DNA of 64,000 nt from Flectonema sp. DT1601 (GCA_964019425.1 OZ025801.1:372001-436000); one strand, 5' to 3'; positions 55,687 to 58,600 are shown, counted from the stretch's first letter. Made by a program: numbers and translations. Notes: generated from the letters alone by a model not told the origin.

Positions 55687-58600
55687 TTATTGACGAGGAG
55701 TACGAAAACTATTGTAAGAAAGCTGGGTATCAACTCGCATTTGATATTCTCTTTCCATGGTTCGTTGTTTGGCTGTTAGTGTTGGAGTTGTAGGGGCCAT
55801 GTTGGAGAGGCTGGGTGGGTGATCGAACGCATTCCCTTGAATAACTGCTTGTTTCTTCATTAAATTTTCTTCCTGACGAGACATTTCAGACCAACATCGA
55901 GATAAAACGCCTTCTCGTTGAGTGTTCCAGTTTTCTCTTTCCTCCCACATCTGTTTTGAAATTTCAAAGTTGGTGGTCCCATTCAAATCCTTTTTAACTT
56001 TTCGGATTCCAAATGTCTGAGCATTCTTATCAGGAAGAACCTTTAATTGTTCATGTACAGCCAACATTTCTTTTATTCTTGTTAGACGAGCCTCTGCTGA
56101 GTGTAAGTCTTCCGTTGCTGTTTTTTTAAATTCAACAACTTCAGGAGAATAACTACCCAACAACGACATGCTAGAAGCAGTAACAGAACAACCAAAAGCA
56201 GTCTGTTGGCAATCACTGACTTTATATATTGAGAATGGTGGAATTATTATTTCTGACTCTCCAGGGTATTGACTCAGAGGAGCAATTTTTAATCCTTCAG
56301 AGACGTTATGAAGAATTAATCTGAGAGTCGAAGGCGCACTACGAGGATCGATACAAGTAGAAGATAAGGGTGATTCAATTCCGATGACATGACCAGCAAT
56401 TAGTTGTTTGTAGTGGTCTAAGACTTCCCAAGGTTGGTGAATTGATAAACATTGGACTGTTGTTGATTTTGGTAATGGTTCTGACATCGATATGAGTAGT
56501 CCTGTAACCTTACACCATTTCATCATCTGATCAATATTTCCAGATTTCAACCCTTCGCAAATCTCTGAATAGATATTGGTATTTCTACGACCTCCGACTC
56601 TCTCATTATAATTCTTCTTTACTTCATCAAAATCCATCGCATCCGGAGCATCTTTCCAAGTCAGTAGCCTGTCGGTATCATCAGAGGTCTGTGACAACAA
56701 CCTTAACACCAATAGCATTATATTACCCCTTCCAGGTAGACTTTTACCGTATGTCGTTGCTAGCTTTTCACATATTCTTAATAATAAAACGTAGTGTGAT
56801 GTTGGTGCATCTGTTTTTTTTTTTTTTTTTTATCATCACAGAGTTTTTTGCAGTTGATTTTAAAAAAAATAAATTTAAATTAAAATTACATACTAGTGCT
56901 CGAGGGGAAAACTAAATTGTTAATAAGTTCATCTAGAACGTCACCAGGTTTTTGATTCCAACATTGTATAAGTGTGATGGCTCTTTCATTTAATGCGTCT
57001 GGTGTTCGACATAATGGTTGTGCTGTTGGTGTTGTTATTTTGATTGAGTTAATTTAATCAAACAGAAATAGATTATGCCTACATACGAATTGATAACTTC
57101 TTAGCATTTGTACCAAGGCATTGAATATGGTTCTTGCTCATTACTTTTTCAAGTTGGCTAACCTGAGCGGTTGCTAAAGGAGCAACCGGTGGATTACCAG
57201 CTGATGATTGCTCTTCTTGTAAATCGATTTCAACTGCTCTCTTGTATATAAATAGTTCGCTGAGATCTCCCATTCGCTGATCAGAAACAGCTGAGCGTTG
57301 CTCAAAGAATCTGTTTGTCTTTTTTTGTTTCTTCTCCCATCGTTCGTACTCTGATTTGCTGGCCTTCGCCACTGGTGGTATTTGTTTTTGTTTTTGTTTT
57401 TCCGCCTGTTCAAGAAGCTCTTTTTGACGTCTTTCAGCCTTCAACTTTTCAGCAGCCATGCGAAAGTATTCTTCTTGTTGGCTGCTGTTCATTTGGTTTT
57501 TTTGTTGCTCCAAACGAGTTCGAGTTTGTGATGAAATTTGTATTCTCTTATCACGACGTTCTTGTTGTTTACGACCGGATTCATCTTTCTTACGTTCAGC
57601 AGCCAGTTCTCTTGTGTACATTAGCTCAACAAAGATTCTGTCTTGGTCAAGAGCTTCTCGGGATTTTCTTTCAGCTTCTAGTCGCCTTTCGACTTGCGCT
57701 TCGTAATTAGCTCTGTTTGTATTGTTGAGATGGGGATCGTAAGGTTTTTTAAAAACAAGAAATGGTATTACAAACCTATATTGATCAACAAGAATCCTAG
57801 TAGTCTTTGATCTACAGAGAACTCCTCTAATGGTTTTCTGAATCGCAACAGCACTGCTGTAGTACAGAACTCGATTACGCTCTTGTTCTTGTTTGTACGC
57901 AAGTTCTTTGGCTTCTCGTTCAGCTCGTTGGGCTTGTTCACGTTTGTGGGTTTCAAGTGCTATTTTTTCACGTTCCTCACGCTCTTGACGTTCGCGGGCT
58001 TCGCGTTCAGCTCGAAGTTGGGTGACATTCTTTTTAACATACAACATAAATGTATCAAAACGACCCTTCCATCCTCTCCCAACTCTCTGTAATGCTGAAC
58101 CGTGAATCGCAAGAGCCTCTTCACGCTTTACTTCTAAAGCCTGAAAACAGTCGCTTTTTAGAAATACTTTACTGCGACCACACTGAGCAAGCTCCATTCC
58201 ATATTGACAGTGTTGTAGTAAAGCTTGGCAGCCTTCTTTACTTGGTTCAGCTGACGGTAATATTGCTCGGTATCGAGTCATAAACTTATCAAATTCAATA
58301 CGAACAGGGTATCCAGCTTTACGTACTGTGACTGTTCCTAACACACCACTTGATGATAACTGGTTCATTACTGATACCCCATGAACGAATCTTTTTACCT
58401 TTTGAGGGTTTGGTTTAATACATCGAATCCAATGCGGGTTCGTAGAATTAATTAAAGTCATCAAATCTTTTAGTTGTTGGTTAAATATCATTGTGACTGT
58501 TGCTTTCTTTCCACCAACACCAAGAGGTTCTGGTATTAATAATTTCGTCAACGGACATGATGACGCTCTCATCATTATTTTCATTGAGTCCTTTAGAGGA

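Follow-up and report, generated by a model that had tools for sequence, protein, structure and literature searches.

The window analyzed here, i.e., the whole stretch of 64,000 nucleotides from Flectonema sp. DT1601 (GCA_964019425.1 OZ025801.1:372001-436000), carries on its minus strand a myosin gene with its start codon at 62161 and its stop at 55687. Five exons, together 4,413 nt, encode 1,470 residues in a single frame that the spliced translation shows to be free of internal stops, and all four introns read GT..AG on the minus strand (60805-58954, 57775-57713, 57086-57023 and 56893-56811). The C-terminal part of the protein is predicted to adopt an ADP-ribosyltransferase (ART) fold. In the following list of features, P0004, P0005 and P0006 are full-length orthologous proteins.

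60806..62161, minus strand: exon 1, with the start codon, a short N-terminal segment and the first part of the motor
58954..60805, minus strand: intron 1 (1,852 nt, GT..AG), with a decayed DNA transposon inside; P0004 reads across the junction
57776..58953, minus strand: exon 2, with the remainder of the motor, an IQ-like motif, an E/R/K-rich helix and a second IQ motif
57713..57775, minus strand: intron 2 (63 nt, in frame); the orthologues have no counterpart of its 21 codons
57087..57712, minus strand: exon 3, with a charged helical tail, a conserved segment preceding the domain and a linker
57023..57086, minus strand: intron 3 (64 nt); P0004, P0005 and P0006 read across the junction
56894..57022, minus strand: exon 4 (129 nt), with the first two helices of the helical lobe of the predicted ART-fold domain
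56811..56893, minus strand: intron 4 (83 nt), with an A-rich acceptor; P0004, P0005 and P0006 read across it
56032..56810, minus strand: first part of exon 5, with the remainder of the helical lobe, a beta core of the R-S-E type whose NAD-side motifs are degenerate, and a long closing helix
56251..56274, minus strand: intact ARTT-type loop, with an aromatic residue and E-x-E (loop defined as in PMC7827354, in part)
55687..56031, minus strand: last part of exon 5, i.e., the last 114 codons and the stop, a C-terminal extension common to the orthologues (27-35% identity among those of full length)

The first-pass annotation had proposed that the introns at 57023-57086 and 56811-56893 and the 129-nt exon between them join the tail to the myosin in frame; the spliced translation bears this out, contains the motifs quoted there, and adds two introns to that pair, i.e., 58954-60805 and the in-frame 57713-57775. 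Stops in the three frames of the 129-nt exon number 3, 4 and 0, the open frame being the one required by phase, and the last exon stays in frame after it through to the stop at 55687. As P0004 is co-linear with the window's exons (88/80/64/75% identity, tblastn) and has no extra residues at any of the four intron positions, this exon structure is not a product of chance. The transposon in intron 1 (58974-60742) is bounded by 33-nt terminal inverted repeats (94% complementary) with TA outermost, and its disrupted ORF matches DDE_1 weakly (E 0.004, below the cut-off); it is presumably pogo/Tc1-mariner-like.

A complete Myosin_head domain, divided between exon 1 (Pfam E 1.8e-117; 88% identity to P0004) and exon 2 (E 2.3e-66), places the protein in the myosin superfamily, and the P-loop, switch I and switch II are intact in the motor of the window as well as in 5 of 5 orthologous proteins. 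The Atlas search returned no myosin class for the motor, and the NCBI name "Myosin-13" may be an automatic best-hit name rather than a class. A first IQ-like motif was recognized by eye at about 58060-58092 and a second lies at 57805-57858 (Pfam IQ E 0.04, below the cut-off). In the Flectonema orthologue, the E/R/K-rich stretch between them is 50-61% charged, with few heptad hydrophobics and 7-9 i,i+4 salt pairs per 28 residues, and it is thus probably a single alpha-helix rather than a coiled coil. Part of the coiled coil of the first-pass annotation, between the two IQ-like motifs, is therefore better read as such a helix.

Sequence comparisons with other diplonemids indicate that the fusion of myosin and tail is real. 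Among 2,753 candidates, two longer relatives of the last exon were found, both myosins from transcriptome assemblies with motor and tail in one chain, one of 1,468 aa from Flectonema neradi (P0004) and one of 1,497 aa from Lacrimia lanifica (P0005). Two more proteins with both a full Myosin_head and the tail came from a representative search: the 1,477-aa KAJ9464535.1 of Diplonema papillatum (P0006) and a 1,484-aa protein from the Namystynia karyoxenos transcriptome (P0023). This search also gave three tail-only fragments, i.e., P0003 (345 aa, Diplonema japonicum transcriptome) and P0007 and P0008, the last two being taken for myosin tails on account of their sequence and their place in the tree. 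As Namystynia, which we take to belong to a different diplonemid family, carries the fusion too, the fusion is probably ancestral in diplonemids. In a tree of the domain, seven myosin tails grouped together at 93/97, with the Namystynia domain as a long branch outside that group, and a single origin of all eight tails, recovered in 6% of bootstrap trees, may nevertheless hold; the orthology of the Namystynia protein rests on whole-length co-linearity rather than on the domain tree. A second D. papillatum gene model, P0050 (KAJ9464536.1), has the neck segment duplicated relative to P0006 and is possibly an annotation or assembly artefact.

An ART domain had been assigned in the first-pass annotation to the 343-aa ORF of the last exon. 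That ORF does contain most of the domain, but the domain is larger (approx. 305 residues), and its start lies in the 129-nt exon rather than at the ORF's Met. When a profile of four orthologous tails was used, 37 of the 40 non-myosin proteins of the family (see below) matched from within the stretch encoded by the 129-nt exon, and structural alignments to HopU1, XopAI and ART2.2 likewise began there.

Pfam scans of the window gave two sub-threshold matches, to ART (E 2.3e-4) and to ADPrib_exo_Tox (E 0.002); the score against ART (PF01129) was 21 bits as compared to a curated cut-off of 22.3, which explains why the tail has been unannotated so far. Folded as a single sequence, the last exon gave a pLDDT of 36, and the single-sequence PDB search returned C3bot2 as the sole match (E 0.083), while a cleaner domain profile (A4) matched Vis (E 6.8e-6) and HopU1 (E 0.011), plus low-complexity noise. 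The fold was modelled on the Flectonema orthologue, which shares 76% identity with the window's protein in the part of the domain encoded by the last exon, and the model (pLDDT 93, pTM 0.90; 45-row alignment) shows the split beta-sheet core and helical lobe of the R-S-E ART fold. A Foldseek comparison, of the kind proposed in the first-pass annotation, placed XopAI first with this model (E 8.5e-8), with 136 matches at E <= 0.001; among the structural matches listed, 50 of 50 were ART-fold proteins. The window's own exon scored 0.96 with ART clusters in the Atlas. Re-alignment of the model gave the following values: HopU1, Z 13.8 (rmsd 3.9, 199 aligned); Tre1, Z 13.3 (rmsd 2.7, 178 aligned); XopAI, Z 13.0 (rmsd 3.8, 197 aligned); ART2.2, Z 11.8 (rmsd 3.5, 191 aligned); and ExoS, Z 11.7 (rmsd 3.0, 165 aligned). 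The suggested R-S-E fold is thus upheld by matches to HopU1, Tre1, XopAI and ART2.2 at Z 11.8-13.8.

The special likeness to the actin-modifying VIP2/C2 toxins that had also been suggested was not borne out. The VIP2, C2, iota and CDT toxins (PF03496) share the superfamily core (Z 10.0-10.3, approx. 155-160 aligned) and the E-x-E, but their match is lower than those of all five proteins above and covers less of the helical lobe, and the myosin tail has no delivery component; the individual values were Z 10.3 for iota Ia, 10.2 for CDTa and 10.1 for C2-I. An actin-toxin identity was accordingly rejected (Z 10.0-10.3 as compared to 13.0-13.8 for the closest folds), and nothing in the motif and structure comparisons points to actin as the substrate. 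As structural Z ranks HopU1, ExoS and the ecto-ARTs above the actin toxins, the domain is predicted from the model to be an R-S-E ART fold nearer to the former group than to VIP2/C2. The fold itself does not separate active from inactive proteins, since XopAI, HopU1 and Tre1 are tied in Z.

The representative search recovered 45 proteins at E <= 0.001, i.e., 5 of the myosin type and 40 others. Among 30 that were scanned, 13 matched Pfam ART or ADPrib_exo_Tox at E <= 0.001 and 9 passed the ART cut-off. Partner domains in the family include midasin-like AAA (with SPRY), ankyrin, PH, CAP, B-box, WD40-like and F5/8, and several family proteins (within P0009-P0049) carry tandem copies of the domain. 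Organism names were looked up for 11 of the 45 proteins, and all 7 named members were from diplonemids, which are abundant marine protists. By sequence, the family appears to be an expanded, diplonemid one. A homologue search confined to proteins of 2,261-5,000 residues yielded no members. As the named relatives are diplonemid and the family domains are fused to varied partner domains, the myosin seems to have taken up one copy of a native, shuffled module. Recent capture of a toxin was rejected, as the nearest relatives form a large native family and the named hits are diplonemid in 7 of 7 cases (11 of 45 looked up).

In R-S-E enzymes, which also have an S-T-S strand, the strand-1 Arg binds NAD and the last Glu of the ARTT loop cleaves NAD, while the aromatic and sixth residues of this loop recognize the target, Glu at position six going with Arg targets (PMC7827354, in part). 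A less conserved aliphatic-Arg motif of a helix also binds NAD (PMC6829252, in part). We counted these motifs in the 8 myosin-type tails and in 42 other family domains from 38 proteins, setting aside P0029 and P0046, whose matches were split or partial, together with the duplicates P0002 and P0050 and the extra split repeats of P0010, P0018, P0019 and P0032. The strand-1 Arg was found in 1 of 8 myosin tails as compared to 34 of 42 other domains, and the Trp preceding S-T-S in 1 of 8 as compared to 39 of 42. None of the 8 tails had the Tyr of the helical YT motif, the helix Asn or the helix Arg, which were present in 32, 27 and 30 of the 42 other domains, respectively; we take the YT and helix Asn positions to be NAD contacts, as in other ARTs. 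On the other hand, the first Ser of S-T-S (7/8 vs. 30/42) and [EQ]-x-E (7/8 vs. 34/42) were largely kept. The full R-S-E triad occurred in 0 of 8 myosin tails as compared to 28 of 42 other domains in the first alignment. Fisher p-values for the motif differences ranged from 9e-6 to 9e-4 with the tails treated as independent, which overstates their independence as the eight are related.

In the window itself, the S-T-S motif reads S-S-T, which fits S-[TS]-[STQ], and the ARTT loop has its [QE]-x-E, whereas the strand-1 segment has no Arg in any register and thus no aromatic-Arg motif; an intact E-x-E and a missing strand-1 Arg are what the first-pass annotation had reported. At the column of the helix Arg, the window has Lys, a conservative change, in place of the aliphatic-Arg motif. 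Strand 1 also lacks Arg in the Flectonema, D. papillatum and D. japonicum copies. An independent profile shifted strand 1 by 1-2 residues, so that the Arg of P0007 fell on the column and that of P0008 within two positions of it; with this uncertainty of register, the strand-1 Arg is present in 1-3 of 8 tails, and P0007 and P0008 may, as judged from the alignment, keep R-S-E. The loop-region residues Q, Y, E, E, P, P and F are invariant in the seven non-Namystynia tails, across which 47 of 223 columns are invariant. The Namystynia tail is in the mirror state, i.e., it has kept the Arg and lost the E-x-E catalytic loop, so that both ways of breaking the triad occur; outside the myosins, the subclade of P0010, P0018, P0019 and P0032 has instead lost E-x-E.

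A close parallel among known proteins is XopAI, a Xanthomonas type III effector (PDB 6kly/6k93; PMC6829252, in part), which resembles the myosin tail in having an R-S-E ART fold with a helical N-lobe, altered NAD-binding Arg motifs and an unchanged ARTT E-x-E. In XopAI, the arom-R and aliph-R motifs are altered, the site was considered unfit for NAD+, and an Arg peptide is bound (PMC6829252, in part). The two differ in that XopAI is a secreted bacterial effector with approx. 11-12% identity to the tail, which is intracellular, and in that XopAI has lost S-T-S, which the myosin tails have for the most part retained; an acidic cleft and the binding of an Arg peptide have been demonstrated for XopAI, to which the myosin tail is likened by fold and motifs. 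Since the NAD side is lost and the target loop is invariant, i.e., the XopAI pattern is found, the tail is probably a pseudo-enzyme that binds an Arg-bearing cargo, anchor or target without transfer of ADP-ribose. The first-pass annotation had left the choice between ART and pseudo-ART open; the family comparison favors the latter, although the catalytic Glu and the first Ser, both of which an active enzyme needs, are kept in the window and in most orthologues.

These retained residues (E-x-E in 7 of 8 tails, the first Ser likewise in 7 of 8) are what would be expected if the tail were active, either as an Arg-specific mono-ADP-ribosyltransferase or as an NAD+ glycohydrolase; its NAD pocket would then be remodelled and might need a partner to complete it, and the motor would deliver the enzyme along actin to its substrate. 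Such an enzyme, which we consider unlikely, is also consistent with the association of Glu at loop position six with Arg targets (PMC7827354, in part), with the strand-1 Arg that P0007 and possibly P0008 may keep, and with the Lys at the window's helix Arg column. The Arg-specific mono-ARTs HopU1 (3u0j), Tre1 (6drh), ART2.2 (1gxy) and ExoS (6gn0), which are active and among the nearest folds, share with the tail the fold, the E-x-E ARTT loop and an S-T-S-like strand; unlike them, however, the myosin tail has no strand-1 Arg and altered helix motifs, and is fused to a motor. The absence of the strand-1 Arg from the window and from the Flectonema, D. papillatum and D. japonicum copies, the absence of YT, helix Asn and helix Arg from 8 of 8 tails, and the Namystynia tail without a catalytic loop all argue against activity, and actin as its target is disfavored by the lower Z of iota, CDTa and C2-I (10.1-10.3 vs. 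13.8 for HopU1). It is likewise doubtful that a diplonemid-wide myosin delivers a competent ADP-ribosyltransferase/NADase with a non-canonical NAD pocket to a defined site, e.g., the feeding apparatus. If this were the case, the motor would be part of an undescribed, expanded diplonemid ADP-ribosylation signalling system comprising dozens of intact-motif ART modules with midasin-like AAA, ankyrin, SPRY, WD40 and PH domains.

A pseudo-ART could also act in cis on an Arg-containing segment of the myosin's own chain, as an auto-inhibitory latch or a dimerization module and not as a cargo adaptor, a reading that we hold to be rather improbable. In all full-length orthologues, the domain lies between conserved segments that contain Arg, and tail-to-head auto-inhibition is common in myosins. 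The Arg peptide bound by XopAI, moreover, comes from that protein's own chain (PMC6829252, in part). The flanking segments are, however, less conserved (27-45%) than the head (53-73%). Finally, we regard it as highly improbable that the 343-aa ORF is a separate gene, or mainly a stand-alone short protein, not joined to myosin: the 345-aa P0003 of D. japonicum starts at nearly the same Met and is labelled "ORF type:complete", but against this stand the four full-length fused orthologues (3 of 4 transcript-derived), the location of the Met inside the domain (approx. profile position 87 of 319), and a pyrimidine content of 0.36 at the intron-4 acceptor as compared to 0.74 at the presumed 5' trans-splice acceptor (one site, assumed). 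P0003 may be a genuine short form, or else an isoform that retains an intron or was mis-assembled.

Under the favored reading of the tail as a pseudo-enzyme, an ancestral diplonemid myosin would have captured one copy from the expanded family of ART modules, after which the NAD contacts would have decayed while selection held the fold and the target loop. The retained target-recognition loop would then grip an Arg-bearing partner, which may be a cargo, an anchor or the myosin's own chain, and the tail would set localization or cargo, as in Trypanosoma cruzi myosins, possibly at the feeding apparatus. The C-terminal tails of T. cruzi myosins suffice for targeting to the cytostome-cytopharynx (PMC7300353, in part), a structure that diplonemids also possess (PMC13615690, in part). 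More generally, the kinetoplastid class XIII and orphan myosins (Myo13, MyoA-MyoF) are similar in motor, IQ and helical region, and their C-terminal tails likewise determine localization; the tails described in part of these sources are coiled coil, UBA or TPH, and none is given there with an ART domain (PMC5778035, PMC7300353). The principle of a motor with a captured domain is shared with class III kinase, myosin-chitin synthase and SH2, phosphatase or MH2 fusions (PMC3942036, in part), but the captured enzyme in the diplonemid myosin looks disarmed.

The tail had been described in the first-pass annotation as unlike any recognized myosin tail, and we indeed found no description of a myosin-ART fusion, or of a diplonemid ART family, in the open-access literature. 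ART is absent from the text and the part of the supplements covered, domain figures aside, of the myosin surveys PMC5583752, PMC5778035 and PMC3942036; a link between the myosin VI cargo domain and an ART immunity protein (PMC3482391, in part) is a different matter. The myosin architecture is thus real and conserved and appears to be undescribed, and the superfamily gains an ART-fold tail type shared by five named diplonemid species, four of them represented by full-length proteins and one by a fragment. In this motor, a toxin-type enzyme fold has likely been domesticated as a binding module of a eukaryotic protein, in parallel with XopAI. The comparison also exposes a large ART-domain family in diplonemids; of the domains sampled from it, two-thirds have the R-S-E triad in full. 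KAJ9464535.1 makes localization, knockout and activity testable, as D. papillatum has already been used for protein localization (PMC13615690, in part).

Several other genes on the minus strand of the window were recognized. Upstream, the myosin gene adjoins a gene for a Methyltransf_32 protein (62311-63999; E 2.5e-19). Its downstream neighbour (approx. 42610-55310) encodes a very large multi-exon protein with a hydrophobic start and a Ser/Thr-rich stalk, for which four scanned ORFs gave no Pfam matches; from these features, the product is probably a secreted or surface protein. At 6779-18012, two adjacent long ORFs, the first with ankyrin repeats and the second with ankyrin and a polycystin/PKD channel, are possibly one gene. 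A receptor-like ORF at 3618-6071 has two hydrophobic stretches and, by eye, a degenerate cyclase-like C-terminus, and gave no Pfam matches at E <= 0.01. An NCA2 protein (19414-21225; E 3.4e-24) and a bVLRF1 release-factor-domain protein (28073-29938; E 4.8e-31) are also encoded. The ORF at 30158-32389 has a dephospho-CoA kinase domain (E 1.2e-35); as judged by eye, a nucleotidyltransferase-like HIGH motif lies before this domain and a C-terminal HD-like region after it, and the product is presumably a CoA synthase with an extra domain.
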